DNA from: Escherichia coli | GTDB lineage: Bacteria > Pseudomonadota > Gammaproteobacteria > Enterobacterales > Enterobacteriaceae | Strand: one strand, 5' to 3' | Assembly: GCF_030384885.1 (NCBI RefSeq) | Contig: NZ_CP128613.1 | Length of the DNA stretch: 64,000 nt | Shown here: positions 587 through 60,891 of the stretch, piece by piece | Numbering within the stretch: position 1 is the stretch's first letter | Layout of the letters: the number at the start of each line of letters is the position of its first letter | Notes under the pieces: model-generated | Seen by the model: the letters and a program-made list of their open reading frames with translations, nothing else | The model's database searches: none | What the model was told of the DNA's origin: nothing | Position numbers and translations under genes: made by a program

Positions 587-1768
587 TCAAGAACGGCGTT
601 TGGTTGCGGAGTCCATCCATACTGCCAGCAACAGAATCGCACCTTTAACGATATACTGCCAGAAGGTCGGTACATCCATCATACTCATGCCGTTATCCAG
701 TGAAGCCATGATGAATGCCCCCATTACCGCTCCAGCCACGCTCCCGACGCCGCCTGCCAGACTGGTGCCGCCAATCACACATGCTGCAATTGCGTCCAGC
801 TCGGCGATATTTCCCGCAGAAGGTGAACCAGCGCCAAGTCGAGAACTGAGGATTAATCCGGCGATGGCTACCATTAATCCGTTAATAGCGAACACGGCAA
901 GTTTGGTGCGTTCAACGTTAATCCCGGAGAGCCGTGCTGCTTCCAGATTGCCGCCGATGGCATAAATGCGTCTTCCAAATGCCGTCCGCGTTGCCATAAA
1001 CATTCCGCCGAGTAACAGCAACGTCAGCAGCAGAACAGGAGTGGGAACGCCACGGTAATCATTCAAAAGCCAGATTGCGCCTAAGACGATAATCGCCGTT
1101 AATGCCTGGCGGCCGACAACTGCGGTAGAGGCCGGAGACTGCAAACCCAAAGCCTGACGGCGCATTCTTCCGCGCCATTGCCAGCCAACAAAAGCCATTA
1201 AGCCAAGCGCGCCAATGATGAAGCCGGTGCTTGCAGGTAGATAGCTTTGCCCAATTTGTGACATCGCGGCACTGGTGGGGGAAACCGTCGTGCCGTTGGT
1301 GATGCCAATGAGTATGCCGCGAAATGCCAACATGCCCGCAAGGGTGACAATAAATGAAGGGACTTTGCGGTACGCGACCCACCATCCGTTCCAGGCACCG
1401 AGAAGCAGTCCCAGAACCAACGTCACAATGATGGTAAGTGGCAAAGGCCAGCCTAGCCAGACGTCACAAATCGCCGCGACGCCACCTAATAGCCCCATCA
1501 TTGAGCCGACGGAAAGGTCGATTTCAGCAGAAATTATGACGAACACCATTCCTACCGCGAGGATGCCGGTAATCGCGGTCTGGCGTAACAGGTTGGAGAC
1601 GTTACGGGCGCTTAAGTAGGCACCATCGGTGGTCCAGGTAAAGAACAGCATGATTGCGATGATAGCTGCAATCATCACGAAGACCTGCAAATTCAGTGAC
1701 TTCAGCCCGGAAAAGCCACCGGATGTCGGTACGGCCAATTTCACTTCAGACGGATTGCTTTTCGACAT
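587..1768 (-). CDS. xylH: Xylose ABC transporter permease
   Basis: 393 aa polytopic membrane ORF; synteny xylF-xylG-xylH; overlaps xylG 3' end by 23 nt. Confidence 0.95.
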
Positions 1769-54157: not shown

Positions 54158-54360
54158 TAAATCACCCGGCAGCGTTTCTTCTGCGCTGCCGGGATTAACG
54201 GTAATAAATTAGTTACCGTGATATAACCGCAGATATTTTTCCTGGCACGGCGGTAGCGCGCAGATAACCATTCATTATTAAAATAAACTTACCGTAGAGT
54301 GGGTTTAATTATTTATTAGCTGAATAAATTATACCGGTGCCTCCTGGAAGGAGTGAGTTT

Positions 54361-54786
54361 ATGCTTGTGTTAAAATCACAATCGATTGGATTCAGGATTT
54401 CCACAGCTTATTTATCTTTAACATATACAGAGTCTGATGGCGTCAAGATTAAAGTAGATGCTCTGGAGTTAATATCAACAGAGAGAGATTATGTTCAAAT
54501 TGAACTGGTCTTCACTACTGTTGCTGAAGTTAAGTGTGCTACCGTCAATTTTTATGAAGCCAACTATAACAATATTGTTATTAAGAAGGTTGATGGTGAA
54601 AATCTGGACTCCGGTATATATCAAGTAATGAATTCTGTACCGCTTGAAGAAAAAGAGAAATTATATGATCCTAAAAAACGGTTGAAGTTAAAACATTATA
54701 TTATAGCAGGTTATGATAGTTATGTTGAGATTTTAGCTACTGGTTTTAGCTGTATACGATGCCAGGCAATAGATGGTGTTAAATAA
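54361..54786 (+). CDS. Hypothetical protein (141 aa), first gene of AT-rich accessory cassette; no signal peptide or TM segment
   Basis: ATG with AGGAG RBS 7 nt upstream; about 33 percent GC; stop overlaps next start (TAATG). Confidence 0.6.
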   Translation: MLVLKSQSIGFRISTAYLSLTYTESDGVKIKVDALELISTERDYVQIELVFTTVAEVKCATVNFYEANYNNIVIKKVDGENLDSGIYQVMNSVPLEEKEKLYDPKKRLKLKHYIIAGYDSYVEILATGFSCIRCQAIDGVK

Positions 54787-55040
54787 TGGCCTATCATATA
54801 GAAATATTGAAAATTGAAGAAACTGATAAAGTAGTAAAATATGAATTTGGACCTACATCTTCTGACTATTGTAGATCTGATTACGGCGAATTCGTGATAG
54901 ATAAAAGAACGGGTGAGATGACATTAGTCAGAATGGTTAAAAACGATTCAGCTAATAAATTTTATTTGCGAGCGAGTTTTAAGATTCTGACCTGTTGGCG
55001 AAAGGGCTATTTGCCAAAAAATGAGGAATGGGCTTCTTAA
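54786..55040 (+). CDS. Hypothetical small protein (84 aa), translationally coupled to upstream ORF
   Basis: ATG overlaps upstream stop by 1 nt; AT-rich; no recognisable motif. Confidence 0.55.
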   Translation: MAYHIEILKIEETDKVVKYEFGPTSSDYCRSDYGEFVIDKRTGEMTLVRMVKNDSANKFYLRASFKILTCWRKGYLPKNEEWAS

Positions 55041-55139
55041 TAAGTAACTTTGCAGAATAAGTGAATTTTCCCATTTTTTTGGGGGCAGTCGTTGATTCTT
55101 ACACAGTTTATGTTATGGGTGCCAAATTTAGGATAGGCT

Positions 55140-55619
55140 ATGGATTTTCACTTGGATATTTTGCTCCCTACACAATTCGCTCCAGAGGAACTAGATCTAC
55201 AAGAGGTTATGATTCACTGGGGTGGGGAAACCTTTCATCGCGACCCTCCGGTATACGCCTGGTGTAATCATCATCTTTTGCAGAGATGCAATCTACCGAT
55301 TACTTATGGCCCACCTTTAGATGAGCACATAGACTTTAATGAATATCATGTTTACAACTTCAATGGTTCTTTAGTCGATGACCTGGAAATGGCTGTGAAT
55401 AAAGGAAAGGATATTTCAACCAATCCTATAATTAAATTTATTAACAACCTGGTTAGCAAAAATTACGGGGGGTGGGTAATCTTGTCATTAGATGATGAAA
55501 AAATAGAAGTGATTAAAAATATAAGCTTCCAGTATTCTTTTCTATCATTATTAGTTGATGGACTAAAATGGGAAAGACCGCATGGGGTGGCAATATTATA
55601 TAATTCACACTTAATTTAA
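55140..55619 (+). CDS. Hypothetical protein (159 aa), cytoplasmic-type
   Basis: ATG with AGGATAGG RBS; AT-rich; no TM. Confidence 0.6.
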   Translation: MDFHLDILLPTQFAPEELDLQEVMIHWGGETFHRDPPVYAWCNHHLLQRCNLPITYGPPLDEHIDFNEYHVYNFNGSLVDDLEMAVNKGKDISTNPIIKFINNLVSKNYGGWVILSLDDEKIEVIKNISFQYSFLSLLVDGLKWERPHGVAILYNSHLI

Positions 55620-55640
55620 TTAATTAATGAATGGAAACAT

Positions 55641-55943
55641 ATGTATCGTGTAAAGGTTGTTTGGCTTACAGAAAATGAAGGTGGCAGAAGGAGCGCACCT
55701 CCTATCGGTAGATATTATCCCGTCTCCAGGTTTCCAGAGGAGAAAACTGACTGGCAAAATAATGCATGGAGTGTTGTTTTTGAATTGGAAAAACCTAATG
55801 TAACCGATGGACGTATCGTTTCAATGGGGTGCGTTCAGTTCCTTTTCGATACCGCCCCTGAACAATGGATGACTAAGTACGAGGCATTTGAGATCTACGA
55901 AGGACCAAGAAAAGTCGCAGATGTATTATTGATAGGGAATTAA
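55641..55943 (+). CDS. Hypothetical small protein (100 aa) with apparent similarity to the C-terminal beta-barrel (domain 3) of EF-Tu-type translational GTPases
   Basis: By-eye alignment to E. coli EF-Tu domain 3: VKVVWLTENEGGRR vs EVYILSKDEGGRH, RYYPV vs GYRPQ, C-terminal AFEIYEGPRKVADVLL vs RFAIREGGRTVGAGVV. Confidence 0.55.
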   Translation: MYRVKVVWLTENEGGRRSAPPIGRYYPVSRFPEEKTDWQNNAWSVVFELEKPNVTDGRIVSMGCVQFLFDTAPEQWMTKYEAFEIYEGPRKVADVLLIGN

Positions 55944-56004
55944 TTTTATTTATGTCAGGCTATTTAATTATATTTGCGACCTCAACGCATTTTCAGGAGT
56001 ATAA

Positions 56005-56538
56005 ATGCGTAACAAAAAACGCATACTATTCTTGCTAACAGTCATTTTTTGCTTAACAGGTCTTTATTCCTGCAACAAAAATTTTCTCTTACTCTGGGAT
56101 GCCAATAATATGTATGTCAGCACAAGAAATAATATCGATAAAGACAAGGTAAAAATAGAATTCGGTATCAGCGTCAACACGATCAACCGAGAAACGGATG
56201 CCGAATTATTTGCTGACAGAGATAAGTATGCAGTGCTCTTCGATGGTAGCCTGAAAAATAAGATGATAAGCGAATACGGAGAAAATGATTTTTTAATTAC
56301 CTACGATAACCGCTGCTATTTATCATTTCGTCAATTTAAAACAAATCGTCGTCATCAACATGACTATTATTTTGACTTCTTTAACAAGGATGGGAATGTC
56401 TTCGTCACGGTCGAAATTAAAGGTGAGAACCCGCTTAAATTTACGCGTAGTTTTAATGATATGCGTCAGCAGTTTTCACCATTCCGTAAGGGTAGCCCTT
56501 CTCACTCCTGCAAGGTTATTTCTTCAGATCCTTCTTAA
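56005..56538 (+). CDS. Hypothetical lipoprotein (177 aa)
   Basis: AGGAG RBS; N-terminus MRNKKRILFLLTVIFCLTGLYSC resembles lipoprotein signal peptide; 3' end overlaps convergent gene by 23 nt. Confidence 0.6.
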   Translation: MRNKKRILFLLTVIFCLTGLYSCNKNFLLLWDANNMYVSTRNNIDKDKVKIEFGISVNTINRETDAELFADRDKYAVLFDGSLKNKMISEYGENDFLITYDNRCYLSFRQFKTNRRHQHDYYFDFFNKDGNVFVTVEIKGENPLKFTRSFNDMRQQFSPFRKGSPSHSCKVISSDPS

Positions 56539-58510
56539 ACACTGGTTCTGGACAATCACGACCAAAATGCGCCGCCCAGTCAAAAGATTTACCGTTTTTC
56601 ACGTAGCGTTGATAAATTAATGCACCGGTTTCTGGATCAAGATATCTGATCCAACTTGCAGCATGGCATAACACGGCAGCCCAAGCCTGGGTTTTAGGGT
56701 GAAGTAAATCGGCTGATTGTCCGGCCCATTCCGCAGCCTGCCAGCGGTAATGCAAAAAATGCTCATCAACAGTGGGGATTGCGTGGCGGAAACGTTGTTT
56801 TTCTTTACGACTTATCCACTGATCGTTATTGCTGTATTCAAAGGGTTCTGAATACTGCCCGCTGGTAATGGCATAATCGGGATACATTTCATAAGCCGCC
56901 AATTCGATACCACTGAAACGCAAAAGCCGCGCAGCTTCGTATTGCGCCTGGGCGCGTTGCTTATCAGGGATGTTTTTATTTTTTGCTATCGCCATTAAAT
57001 CAGCCAGTTTTTGTGCGGCCTGGCGATAATTGGGAATATCAAACCAATTGATGGCCTGCTGGTACTGGCCATGACGAATTAATCGTCTACCCAATAACGC
57101 CCGTAATTTAACATCCGTTGGAATGATATCTGGCGAAAGATAATAACCGTCATTGTTATTATTTAAATCTACAGGTTTTAAAGGGTGCTGAGGTACCGGT
57201 ACGTTTTTTTCAACAAACGCCTGTAACTCCGGTAAGGTCAAAACGTTTTCTGCAACCCAGGCTAAATCGGCCCAATAGAGATCTTTGGCCTGGTAAAACA
57301 ATGCGGTGGCCTGAAGATAATCATCGCGTTTTAATGCCAAAATCGCCTGCTCACTGGCAATACGGCAAGATGGGATAATAACTTTATCTCCATGATAATA
57401 AGGACTTTCCGGGTCCATACTTCCCCACACTTCATCGGTCGGGAACATCGGGGCTGCGCGAGCATAGTGACGCGTTGCCAGTGGAATATCTCCGGCTCGT
57501 AATGCCATTTTTGCTTTTAACCATTCGCTTAATCCACTTTCTGGCGCATCCTGCAACAGCGTTTGTGCTAACGAATAATTTCCTGCCCGATACGCCAGTG
57601 CTGCCAGGCGATCGCTATAACTAAATCCTTTAACTCTGTGTTGACTTAGCAACTTAATTAAACGGTCGCGATGCGTTGGACAGGTATAATCTACAAGGTC
57701 CTTAGTACAGGCTTCGCTAACATACCCCCAGTCATGACGAATAAAGAGCTCTGCGATTACCAGTTGCTGAACCAGAGAATCATTAATAACCGACTCCAGC
57801 AGTGGTAAATTTTTCTCCCTGGTTATATACAGCGAAATCATCCGTAGCGACGCTTTCCCGGAGGGCGAACCCTGGGCCGCTTGCCGGGCATACATTTTTA
57901 CTGCCGCAGCGACATCACCTTTTTTCAGATAATAATGCCCAATCTGACCGAGACTGGCGAGAGAGAGCAATTCAGGATCGGCTGCGCCATTACGCACTTC
58001 TTCAATGATTTGCTGATAACGCTGTATGGCCTGCTCAGCAAGTTCCTGATTAAAGCCACCTTTATTGATTATAAGATCGAGATCGTCGTCAGAGGCATCA
58101 AATCCCCCCCTTGCCAGACTATATAGCGCAGCCAGCCGCCATTCTCCTTGCTCTGTTTTCGGCAAGGCTAATAATTGCTGAAAGTATGGGCTATCGTATT
58201 TTCCCTGATGGAAATCCTTAGCTCCTGAATAATAAAGTTCCAGTGCCCGATTTTGCACAGGAGGTTCAGCATCTGTATCTGTCTGCGTTGCCTCTTCAGG
58301 CGTATTTTCTTGCCATACTGGTAAACCAGGATCGCGTTTAACCAACTGTTGTACTTCAAAGACAAAACTGCCATTTGGCATTTCCAGCAGTGCGCTATTG
58401 CGGTCAGTTAACAGATGATTGGGAATAAATGGTCCACAGGCATTAACGTTGGCGCTAATTAGCGAGAGAAATACAACAACGGAAAGCCGCGATATTTTAG
58501 GGGATAACAT
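56516..58510 (-). CDS. Hypothetical large lipoprotein (664 aa) with helical repeat (TPR/Sel1-like) character
   Basis: ORF 56516..58735; start placed at ATG 58510 (MLSPKISRLSVVVFLSLISANVNAC, lipobox) with AGGAGAG RBS; near-native GC; start overlaps upstream gene stop by 14 nt. Confidence 0.75.
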   Translation of the reverse strand: MLSPKISRLSVVVFLSLISANVNACGPFIPNHLLTDRNSALLEMPNGSFVFEVQQLVKRDPGLPVWQENTPEEATQTDTDAEPPVQNRALELYYSGAKDFHQGKYDSPYFQQLLALPKTEQGEWRLAALYSLARGGFDASDDDLDLIINKGGFNQELAEQAIQRYQQIIEEVRNGAADPELLSLASLGQIGHYYLKKGDVAAAVKMYARQAAQGSPSGKASLRMISLYITREKNLPLLESVINDSLVQQLVIAELFIRHDWGYVSEACTKDLVDYTCPTHRDRLIKLLSQHRVKGFSYSDRLAALAYRAGNYSLAQTLLQDAPESGLSEWLKAKMALRAGDIPLATRHYARAAPMFPTDEVWGSMDPESPYYHGDKVIIPSCRIASEQAILALKRDDYLQATALFYQAKDLYWADLAWVAENVLTLPELQAFVEKNVPVPQHPLKPVDLNNNNDGYYLSPDIIPTDVKLRALLGRRLIRHGQYQQAINWFDIPNYRQAAQKLADLMAIAKNKNIPDKQRAQAQYEAARLLRFSGIELAAYEMYPDYAITSGQYSEPFEYSNNDQWISRKEKQRFRHAIPTVDEHFLHYRWQAAEWAGQSADLLHPKTQAWAAVLCHAASWIRYLDPETGALIYQRYVKNGKSFDWAAHFGRDCPEPVFKKDLKK

Positions 58511-59705
58511 TGAACTCTCCTTGTAAATTTGGGGTGCATCGCGCCCATCCCAGCGCACTGCTTTCACCAGCACGCAACTGCCTGGTACTGATGCGAATAA
58601 AACGTAACGAGGATGCGTTGGTTTGTGCCTGATAATGGCCTGCGCCATCAGCATATGTGCATTGAGCAGCAGGCAGCTCGATCTGTTGTGGCAATGGCGC
58701 GTCAATATCACCATTGTTTTTAATGGCCAAATCAATAAGTTGCTTGTCAGCCTGTGGCGAAATTATCAAAGACCAGCGCGGCGTCAAAGGTTTATGGTGA
58801 ATAACGGCATCTAAAGTAGACAGGGACCAGGCGCGGCGATCATTTGCCAGCGGGAGTCGGAACCAGATAAATCCCTGTAACCCTGAGGGCGGTTTTTGTT
58901 CCAGCTGTTGGGTAAAATCAGCCAACGTTTGTGGCGCCACACTCAGCTCCCGCAACTCTTGTGCAATATACAGTGGGGCTTCGCTTTCAATACGGTTATC
59001 GCGCGTCAGCGCAGAACCGTAAGCCGGCAGAGCGATGTAAAAAGGATGGGGAGAAATACGTGCATATTGCGTGCTCCAGCGCTTAGCCAGTTTACTGTCG
59101 AATAATCCCTGTTGCGGCGATAACACCGTATGCACCTGCAAAACAGAAATATCGGCGTCAGCCAGCAGCGCAGGCAGATGTGGTGAATTCAGCCAGTCAG
59201 GTAATGCAGTAATACTGAGTTTTAATTCTGCAGGAAGATTCTGGCGCAATGTCCTTAGCAACTGTTGGTATTCCACCAGTTTTGCCGTTGGCGCATCGAA
59301 ATCAATTTCAATGCCAGCCAGCTTAATACCCGCCTCTTTCCACTCATTCATTGTTCGTACAATGTTCTGCACAACATTTTGTTGATTAATATGAGAGAGC
59401 TTACCGTCCAGTCGCGCAACCAGCCAGACGGGGCGATCATCTTGTTTTATAAATGTTTTATTAACGGCGGTGTAGCGTATACCTTCCTGAGGATGAACTT
59501 GTAGCTCCAGAATGCGTAGCGTTGAGAACAGATTACGGCTCTGTTTTAGTGCGTGCTCATGTTGCGCGGTCCACAAACGCTGCCAGATATAGACTTGTTG
59601 ATCGAGGGGGCGTGTTTTTTGCGGCATAAGCCGGGTCAGCAGCCCATATCCAGAGCCGATAAAAACGATGAGTGAAATGGCAAAAATCCATTTGCGAGAG
59701 GGCAT
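58497..59705 (-). CDS. Hypothetical membrane-anchored periplasmic protein (402 aa); alternating beta-strand/helix pattern and GIEIDFD motif suggest a TIM-barrel glycosidase-like fold (inference)
   Basis: N-terminal TM helix IFAISLIVFIGSGYGLL; motifs VWLVARLDG, AGIKLAGIEIDFDAP, ISVLQVHTV; translationally coupled to downstream lipoprotein gene. Confidence 0.75.
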   Translation of the reverse strand: MPSRKWIFAISLIVFIGSGYGLLTRLMPQKTRPLDQQVYIWQRLWTAQHEHALKQSRNLFSTLRILELQVHPQEGIRYTAVNKTFIKQDDRPVWLVARLDGKLSHINQQNVVQNIVRTMNEWKEAGIKLAGIEIDFDAPTAKLVEYQQLLRTLRQNLPAELKLSITALPDWLNSPHLPALLADADISVLQVHTVLSPQQGLFDSKLAKRWSTQYARISPHPFYIALPAYGSALTRDNRIESEAPLYIAQELRELSVAPQTLADFTQQLEQKPPSGLQGFIWFRLPLANDRRAWSLSTLDAVIHHKPLTPRWSLIISPQADKQLIDLAIKNNGDIDAPLPQQIELPAAQCTYADGAGHYQAQTNASSLRFIRISTRQLRAGESSALGWARCTPNLQGEFNVIP

Positions 59706-59758
59706 TTGAACCCGGAATCCATGTGGTCAATAACAGAAAGTATACTGCGGAACTATTT

Positions 59759-59790
59759 AGCGGAGAAATTATTCCATTAATTTCTCCGCT
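59759..59790. terminator. Perfect 13-bp-arm hairpin between kdgK stop and the downstream operon (candidate terminator/attenuator)
   Basis: agcggagaaatta-ttccat-taatttctccgct; no canonical U-tract on the kdgK transcript side. Confidence 0.4.
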
Positions 59791-59806
59791 ATGATTGATG
59801 TGTTAT

Positions 59807-60736
59807 TTACTGAGGCATGGCTTCGCGAGGAATAATCGCGCCGCGATACTGAATAACGGTACTTGCGGTCAGGTGCCCGCGTTTCGCCGCATTTTCCGCA
59901 CTGGCGCCCGTCAAACGTACCGCCAGATAACCGGCACTGAAAGAGTCGCCAGCTGCAGTGGTATCGATCACTTTTTCTTTTGGCAGTTTCACCGCCGGAA
60001 CATCCACTAACCCCTCGCCAGCAATGGACACCAGGCAAGAATCCGCCCCGCGTTTCACCACCACTTCTTTCACGCCCGCGTTATGGGTGCGCGCAATGAC
60101 GTCTTCCACCGGTTGTTGACCCCACAGCGCGTCTTCGTCGTCCAGCGTCAGGAAGGCGATATCCGTGCATTCCAGCATTTGCTGGTACATCTGCTGTGTC
60201 TCTTCTTTGCTGGCCCACAAGCGCGGACGGTAGTTATTGTCGAAAATCACTTTTCCACCGTTAGTGCGGCATTCGCGCAGCAGGGAAAGCAGCTTTTCGC
60301 GGCTGGTCGGGCTTAAGATTGCCAGGCTAATCCCGCTCAGGTAGAGATAATCAAAATTCGCCAGCTCTGCACAAATCGCTGCGGATTGCTCACTCTCCAG
60401 CCAAAATTTGGCGGCGGCTTCGTTACGCCAGTAGTAGAACGTACGTTCGCCAGTGCTGTCGGTTTCAATGTAGTAAAGACCCGGCAGACGGTTTTCCATC
60501 CGCTGGGTCAGGGAAGTATCAACGTTCTCGCCGTGCCAGGCGTCCAGCATCTGCTGACTAAAACTGTCCGTTCCCAGCGCCGTCACGTAATGAACGGTTA
60601 ATGCCGCAGGATCGACCTGACGGGCGATATAGACGGAAGTGTTCAGGGTATCGCCGCCGAAACCGCGCTTAACGTCCGCGCCTTTCTCGGAAAGCTCAAT
60701 CATGCATTCGCCAATCACGGCAATCTTTTTGGACAT
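59807..60736 (-). CDS. kdgK: 2-dehydro-3-deoxygluconokinase
   Basis: 309 aa; MSKKIAVIGECMIELSEKGADVKRGFGGDTLNTSVYIARQV; PfkB family. Confidence 0.95.
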   Translation of the reverse strand: MSKKIAVIGECMIELSEKGADVKRGFGGDTLNTSVYIARQVDPAALTVHYVTALGTDSFSQQMLDAWHGENVDTSLTQRMENRLPGLYYIETDSTGERTFYYWRNEAAAKFWLESEQSAAICAELANFDYLYLSGISLAILSPTSREKLLSLLRECRTNGGKVIFDNNYRPRLWASKEETQQMYQQMLECTDIAFLTLDDEDALWGQQPVEDVIARTHNAGVKEVVVKRGADSCLVSIAGEGLVDVPAVKLPKEKVIDTTAAGDSFSAGYLAVRLTGASAENAAKRGHLTASTVIQYRGAIIPREAMPQ

Positions 60737-60800
60737 AGTCGTGAACCTGATCTGTAAAAATTAGCGTTAGTTTGCGCTGTGGTGGTTTGCTGGTCAACCA

Positions 60801-60822
60801 TATTAAAACAGTGTTCCATTAT
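60801..60822. promoter_or_regulatory. Candidate KdgR operator upstream of kdgK
   Basis: Imperfect palindrome ttaaaacagtgttccatt resembling the KdgR box (AAAACA n TGTTTC-like half sites). Confidence 0.35.
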
Positions 60823-60891
60823 TTTTTTGAGCCAGAACGTATTCCTGAAAGATTCCGTAGTGGAGTGGGGAAATTTAACCCGGTCAGGCGG

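Follow-up and report, generated by a model that had tools for sequence, protein, structure and literature searches.

A conserved palindrome between kdgK and a DUF3142/TPR-like island of Escherichia coli most likely serves as an ordinary RNA hairpin ending the kdgK transcript

Introduction

Between kdgK and a downstream gene for a DUF3142-domain protein, both on the minus strand, the stretch of Escherichia coli DNA analysed here (64,000 nucleotides, hereafter the window) carries a perfect palindrome. The locus raises the question of whether this palindrome ends or protects the kdgK message, or whether it couples kdgK to the expression of the island genes that follow. The initial annotation had offered three readings: a partial terminator or attenuator, a site of RNA processing, and a palindromic protein-binding site through which the two are coupled.

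Efficient intrinsic termination in E. coli requires a U-tract, and the multi-copy REP sequence of malE-malF acts as an intra-operon stabiliser. For Rho-dependent transcripts of E. coli, steady-state 3' ends have been located at stable stem-loops that lack a U-tract and protect against PNPase and RNase II (Dar & Sorek 2018, PMC6061677), and protective structures within operons contribute to differential decay of mRNA (Dar & Sorek 2018, PMC5927463).

Results

A perfect 14-bp palindrome in the kdgK 3' untranslated region

Read on the plus strand, the palindrome is tAGCGGAGAAATTA-ttccat-TAATTTCTCCGCTa; on the minus strand it is TAGCGGAGAAATTA-ATGGAA-TAATTTCTCCGCTA. The 13-bp arms (59759-59771 and 59778-59790) and the 6-nt loop of the initial annotation were correct, and one further T/A pair extends the arms to a perfect 14 bp (59758-59771 and 59778-59791; Table 1). 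The distance from the kdgK stop codon (59809..59807) had been given as 17 nt and is in fact 16 nt with the 13-bp arms or 15 nt with the 14-bp arms, while the distance to the ATG of the DUF3142 gene, put at about 55 nt, is 53 or 52 nt, respectively. The hairpin lies within the kdgK 3' untranslated region.

Table 1. Features at the junction of kdgK and the island, in window coordinates
Feature	Position	Strand	Evidence
Perfect palindrome / RNA stem-loop	59758..59791	-	14/14 pairs kept in 7 sequences; -19.7 kcal/mol (hairpin folded alone as RNA)
5' arm (kdgK-sense strand), UAGCGGAGAAAUUA	59791..59778	-	
3' arm of the palindrome	59771..59758	-	
Hairpin loop AUGGAA, 6 nt	59777..59772	-	
-35-like TTCTCC, inside the palindrome 3' arm	59762..59767	-	Conservation in alignment A2
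-10-like TATACT, 13 nt past the hairpin and 33 nt before the ATG	59739..59744	-	Conservation in alignment A2
kdgK, 2-dehydro-3-deoxygluconokinase, 309 aa	59807..60736	-	RefSeq WP_000037561.1
DUF3142-domain protein gene, 402 aa, first in the two-gene island operon	58497..59705	-	PF11340, E = 2e-73
TPR-like protein gene, 664 aa, overlapping the DUF3142 gene stop	56516..58510	-	RefSeq

By chance, perfect 14-bp arms are expected at ~0.002 per window (64,000 positions x 8 loop sizes x 4^-14), so the palindrome is not a chance occurrence. Two perfect 14-bp-arm hairpins with loops of 3-10 nt were present in the window, the one studied here and another at 539-570. The latter (CTCAAAACCGGTAA/TTACCGGTTTTGAG) is the canonical terminator of a minus-strand gene (587..1768), with UUUUUG after the stem, the U-run being on the minus strand, and an A/T-rich run at the opposite side.

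The stem has a GC-rich base (GCGGAG/CUCCGC) and an AT-rich top, and the 131-nt region around the hairpin folded with a z-score of -4.5 relative to shuffled sequences. Among Rfam families, the best matches, at 15.4 and 9.8 bits, fell far below the respective gathering scores (80 and 382) and were not meaningful. When 5,426 E. coli genomes were searched by BLAST with the 46-nt region, its own locus alone was returned, so the palindrome is single-copy.

The island replaces the yhjJ-kdgK spacer

The window sequence is identical to that of E. coli 2013C-4282 (NZ_CP027579.1), which was also the single genome among 5,426 complete E. coli genomes to match the junction between kdgK and the 402-aa gene. 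The stop codons of yhjJ and kdgK lie 95 bp apart in ordinary E. coli; here, an island of ~5.5-5.6 kb (54158-59806) takes the place of this whole spacer, from stop codon to stop codon. Its cargo consists of five small hypothetical genes on one strand, and the DUF3142 and TPR-like genes on the kdgK strand. The exact window-type DUF3142 protein was found on at least 24 further contigs; one of these was inspected, and its intergenic region was identical.

Neither RefSeq annotation nor a domain search revealed an integrase or transposase in the island. Its two ends shared no direct or inverted repeat beyond chance (longest common substring 7 nt, shuffle mean 7.7), and no DNA-binding domain or regulator gene was found among the seven island proteins with Pfam and NCBIfam.

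The last ~25 nt of kdgK (59807-59835) diverge from ordinary E. coli more than the remaining gene does. The encoded C-terminus ends in AMPQ here and in AMPA ordinarily, and megablast homology stops at ~59814, which suggests that the recombination junction delivering the island may lie inside the kdgK 3' end. At the yhjJ-side edge of the island (54164-54191), a second hairpin without a U-tract stands right after the yhjJ stop; it reads CCCGGCAGCG-N8-CGCTGCCGGG, followed by ATTAACGG.

The hairpin is conserved in a second island type

The same position next to kdgK is taken by a second island type in 29 complete genomes of E. coli, SMS-3-5 among them, as well as in E. marmotae and Escherichia sp. 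E1V33. It carries fewer small genes, and its DUF3142 protein is 66-67% identical to that of the window. The spacer between kdgK and the DUF3142 gene has the form TAA-N8-(G/A)CGGAGAACGGG(T/C)AGATATTCGTTCTCCGTT-N11-(T/C)(A/G)GTA(T/C)ACT, and its hairpin aligned in register with that of the window (alignment A1). A scan of GTDB genomes with the DUF3142 protein returned 14 loci, with the kdgK context in Escherichia sp. E1V33 alone. Three matches were obtained in a metagenome scan for the 3' arm plus the -10 pattern, from which the common island type was excluded; all were chance matches lacking the hairpin.

In alignment A1, all 14 pairs were standard in all seven distinct sequences (100% of 98 cells), and this fraction fell to 36-54% when the partners were slid against each other. 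Four pairs had changed at both partners, reading AUUA/UAAU in the window and CGGG/AUUCG elsewhere; these double changes represent essentially one lineage split, between the window type and the second type. In a shuffle control for this covariation the observed value was reached in 2 of 500 trials, a count that is not a probability.

The changes were also asymmetric between strands. In the second type, 3-4 pairs are G·U on the kdgK-sense strand alone and become C·A mismatches on the opposite strand. The sense RNA had a folding energy of -20 to -22 kcal/mol across all variants, and the second-type antisense strand reached only -14 to -15.5 kcal/mol, 5-6 kcal/mol weaker. Resting on 3-4 pairs, this asymmetry has a chance of ~0.06-0.12 if transitions only are assumed. 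Compensatory and wobble changes preserve the hairpin on one strand, across what is essentially one lineage split.

Variable positions within the second type were concentrated outside the hairpin (3 of 36 hairpin columns vs 25 of 57 columns of non-coding DNA beside it; Fisher p = 2e-4). In both island types, the outer half-sites CGGAGAA and TTCTCCG were invariant and always 14 bp apart. The palindrome is a real, conserved feature.

E. coli N3 (NZ_CP031609.1; locus L030, 5040-5100) has lost the DUF3142 and TPR genes together with the -10 region. The deletion begins 4 nt past the hairpin, which stays attached to kdgK. A convergent gene of the 177-aa type, left without its own end, is now annotated as a 194-aa ORF running through the hairpin into the kdgK 3' end, and a neighbouring gene is annotated as encoding a TriTu-family immunity protein.

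The hairpin lacks a U-tract

A stable stem-loop is present 15 nt past the kdgK stop and co-directional with kdgK, as in an intrinsic terminator, but no U-rich tract follows the stem. The lack of a U-tract remarked on in the initial annotation was confirmed on both strands: a terminator scan called 0 sites, and the tail AAUAGUUCC scored -1.94 (d'Aubenton-Carafa-type), a value that 48% of window positions reach. Real terminators in the window had tail scores of -4.4 and -5.2. The second-type tail was mildly U-richer (-2.7 to -3.3). As no U-run follows the hairpin, it is unlikely to be an efficient intrinsic terminator of the classical kind. The sequence before the hairpin, AUCAAUCAU, contains no A-tract, as expected of a protective stem-loop without a U-tract.

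In the first 53, 78 and 100 nt downstream of the hairpin, the C/G ratio was 1.1, 1.2 and 1.5, respectively, a mild C>G bias in a stretch that lies mostly inside the DUF3142 ORF, and the untranslated gap for Rho loading is small (52 nt before this ORF). Published K-12 3'-end tables (PMC7815308 supplements) list no kdgK 3' end, and K-12 is without the hairpin anyway.

Attenuation through alternative structures was not supported. Long-range helices that a single-sequence fold places between the kdgK 3' end and the DUF3142 leader were not conserved; each of their pairs failed in 1-2 of the 7 sequences, and the covariation term was ~0. Of the options originally put forward, the partial terminator and the processing site, both acting through RNA, gained from the kept pairing and the sense-only G·U pairs, whereas the attenuator found no support and coupling was weakened.

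Promoter-like elements are conserved with or without the hairpin

Twelve upstream regions of DUF3142 genes were aligned (alignment A2). They come from 4-5 genomic contexts, namely kdgK, tynA (L023), Pseudocitrobacter-like ones (L004, L026, L027) and L028. The element TAnnCT was invariant in 12 of 12 sequences, and a TTCnCC hexamer was found in which TT was invariant and CC nearly so. The spacing between the -35-like and -10-like elements was 17 nt and gap-free, while the distance from the -10-like element to the ATG varied by a few nt owing to indels in the 5' untranslated region. A consensus promoter scan of the region called no promoter, because the -35-like TTCTCC has only 3 of its 6 bases in common with the consensus TTGACA.

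From this conservation we infer a promoter of the DUF3142 operon at TTCTCC/TATACT, with a transcription start near 59732. The island genes would then have their own weak sigma-70-type promoter, whose -35 element is the inner part of the 3' arm. Because the transcript would start downstream of the hairpin, the hairpin would not be part of the island transcript.

The 5' arm, and hence the hairpin, was present only where kdgK ends just upstream of the promoter. In L023, the co-directional tynA carries a canonical terminator instead, and in L026, where the upstream gene is divergent, there is no hairpin. The 5' arm thus looks like an addition complementary to a pre-existing -35 region, made only where the promoter abuts the kdgK end. 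The idea that the palindrome couples kdgK to the island is weakened by the -35-like and -10-like elements, which are conserved in every context, with or without kdgK. With the 5' arm confined to kdgK and the island apparently having its own promoter, the element looks like an insulator or a 3'-end structure rather than a coupler.

The non-kdgK contexts share a GCACAATTCCGAAWT motif (a near-palindrome, AATTC-N-GAATT) upstream of the DUF3142 promoter. It lies ~75 nt upstream of the -10-like element in L026, L027 and L004 and also occurs in L023. Escherichia loci with the kdgK context lack this motif, which could be the binding site of a regulator.

Discussion

Most likely, the palindrome works as an ordinary RNA hairpin that closes the kdgK message and is placed over the putative promoter of the next operon. 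We give a probability of roughly 0.55 to a kdgK 3'-UTR stem-loop, acting as a weak terminator and/or 3'-end protector, that overlaps an independent island promoter. Transcription of kdgK would form a 14-bp stem-loop of about -20 kcal/mol 15 nt past the stop codon. Most likely, this hairpin would mark the 3' end of the kdgK mRNA and protect it against 3'-to-5' exonucleases. The 3' end itself may arise by leaky or factor-dependent termination, or by endonucleolytic cleavage just downstream of the hairpin, so that read-through into the island would be lowered and not abolished. These roles in transcription, termination and stability are deduced from sequence, and on this basis the hairpin appears to be an ordinary regulatory element of a known sort rather than a new kind.

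The closest comparison is with the U-less stem-loops of Rho-dependent transcripts (PMC6061677). The kdgK hairpin resembles them in being stable, a few nt past the stop and of terminator-like energy and size, with neither a U-run nor an A-tract. It differs from them in overlapping a promoter -35 and in having only a mild downstream C-over-G bias and only 52 nt to the next translated ORF. With canonical intrinsic terminators, the hairpin shares its position, strand and GC-rich stem base, but its stem top is AT-rich and it lacks the U-tract, their defining second half. If kdgK transcription reads through, the hairpin could, after cleavage, stabilise the kdgK mRNA relative to the downstream genes, like intra-operon protectors (PMC5927463). 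Those structures are mostly within coding regions, and REP is multi-copy, whereas the kdgK hairpin is intergenic and single-copy.

The main rival, unlikely though with several features in its favour, is a DNA operator or activator site, at which a dimeric or tetrameric regulator would bind CGGAGAA-N14-TTCTCCG over the island -35. A symmetric protein-binding site would preserve dyad symmetry just as an RNA stem does. The spacing of the outer half-sites is fixed at 14 bp whichever island type is considered, and within the second type conservation is high over the full 36 bp, including the loop. The weak -35-like hexamer is consistent with activator dependence, and the palindrome is centred at about -42.5 from the inferred start, where class II activators typically bind if the -35 of a promoter is poor. 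Sites of this class (CRP/FNR type) are centred near -41.5 with half-sites ~11 bp apart, whereas the half-sites of the palindrome are 21 bp apart centre to centre, which is atypical for a simple dimer, and there is no sequence resemblance. Against a DNA-level role, the inner arms of the second type pair only as RNA, through G·U, leaving a DNA dyad of 10 bp. Nor does the palindrome travel with the island promoter: the promoter-like elements are conserved without the palindrome or its 5' arm in L023, L004, L026, L027 and L028. Pfam and NCBIfam identified no regulator gene among the island proteins that could be cognate to it.

KdgR was considered as the regulator and rejected. An imperfect palindrome resembling a KdgR box, AATAATGGAACACTGTTTTAATAT, lies at 60823..60800 on the minus strand, in the kdgK-pdeH divergent promoter region, and has only the 8-mer TAATGGAA in common with the hairpin. 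The 8-mer falls in the loop and the stem top, which differ in the second type, and it is not conserved there; its sharing is probably a coincidence. A KdgR consensus (AAAYRNYRTTT) missed the kdgK upstream region, a failed positive control that makes this a weak test of KdgR.

The palindrome is quite improbably functionless, whether as an incidental sequence or as a relic of island junction formation. The island boundary does coincide with the kdgK stop and is no more than 15 nt from the palindrome, and the deletion endpoint in N3 is 4 nt away from it, as expected if palindromes promote rearrangement. However, pairing, register and energy were kept across two island types with just 66% protein identity, the hairpin was seven-fold less variable than its flanks, and an expectation of ~0.002 per window speaks against an incidental origin.

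It is very improbable that the hairpin is an efficient Rho-independent kdgK terminator by which the island is fully insulated. The location of a stable, co-directional stem-loop straight after the stop codon and the mildly U-richer tail of the second type fit such a terminator, but the scan found no site and the window tail scored at the median of random positions, far from the range of true terminators.

A dual use of the element is equally hard to credit. Here, the RNA would end or stall kdgK transcription on the island promoter, and the same DNA dyad would be read by a regulator or by supercoiling; the dyad of the window variant has an AT-rich core prone to cruciform extrusion, again centred at about -42.5. 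If this were true, KDG-driven kdgK induction would actively gate the promoter of the island, either occluding or activating it, and a terminator-operator hybrid would have been made by adding a complement to an existing -35.

A repeat or mobile-element sequence (REP/BIME-like, a MITE, the end of an IS, or a recombinase site through which the island came in) is extremely improbable and already largely refuted: the palindrome sits at the edge of a strain-variable island, but it occurs at one place in 1 of 5,426 E. coli genomes rather than in many copies, a 13-mer search of the window (<=2 mismatches) gave scattered intragenic matches with no second copy and none near the other island end, and no terminal repeats, integrase, transposase or Rfam match was found.

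For a kdgK 3'-UTR stem-loop over an independent island promoter, the value of the finding lies mainly in annotation: the rare DUF3142/TPR island is probably a transcription unit of its own, separate from the kdgK message that KdgR controls. The hairpin is a further conserved case of a 3' stem-loop without a U-tract, and the current understanding of termination is left unchanged. There is also an evolutionary point. As the 3' arm is the putative -35 region of the island promoter, a 3'-end structure can, it seems, be built from existing promoter sequence.

The DUF3142/TPR-like pair in other genomes

The TPR-like gene is a constant companion of the DUF3142 gene. A DUF3142 gene and a gene for a TPR-like protein of ~680 aa form a portable two-gene module whose overlap is always 14 nt (L023, L039-L041, L005-L006). 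The module was found after tynA and, as part of a three-gene operon, behind an M28 peptidase gene; in Serratia it overlaps the upstream gene, and Pseudomonas and Moraxellaceae carry it too. A literature search on DUF3142 returned nothing relevant, and no paper was found on the protein of PDB 8y6t/9vtv, a solved DUF3142 protein structure (weak match, E = 1e-6). For the TPR-like gene of the window, the mechanical ORF list gave 739 aa from a TTG (56516-58735), and RefSeq gives 664 aa. The start of the 664-aa form sits 14 nt before the DUF3142 stop, and its N-terminus (MLSPKISRLSVVVFLSLISANVNAC...) is signal-peptide-like.
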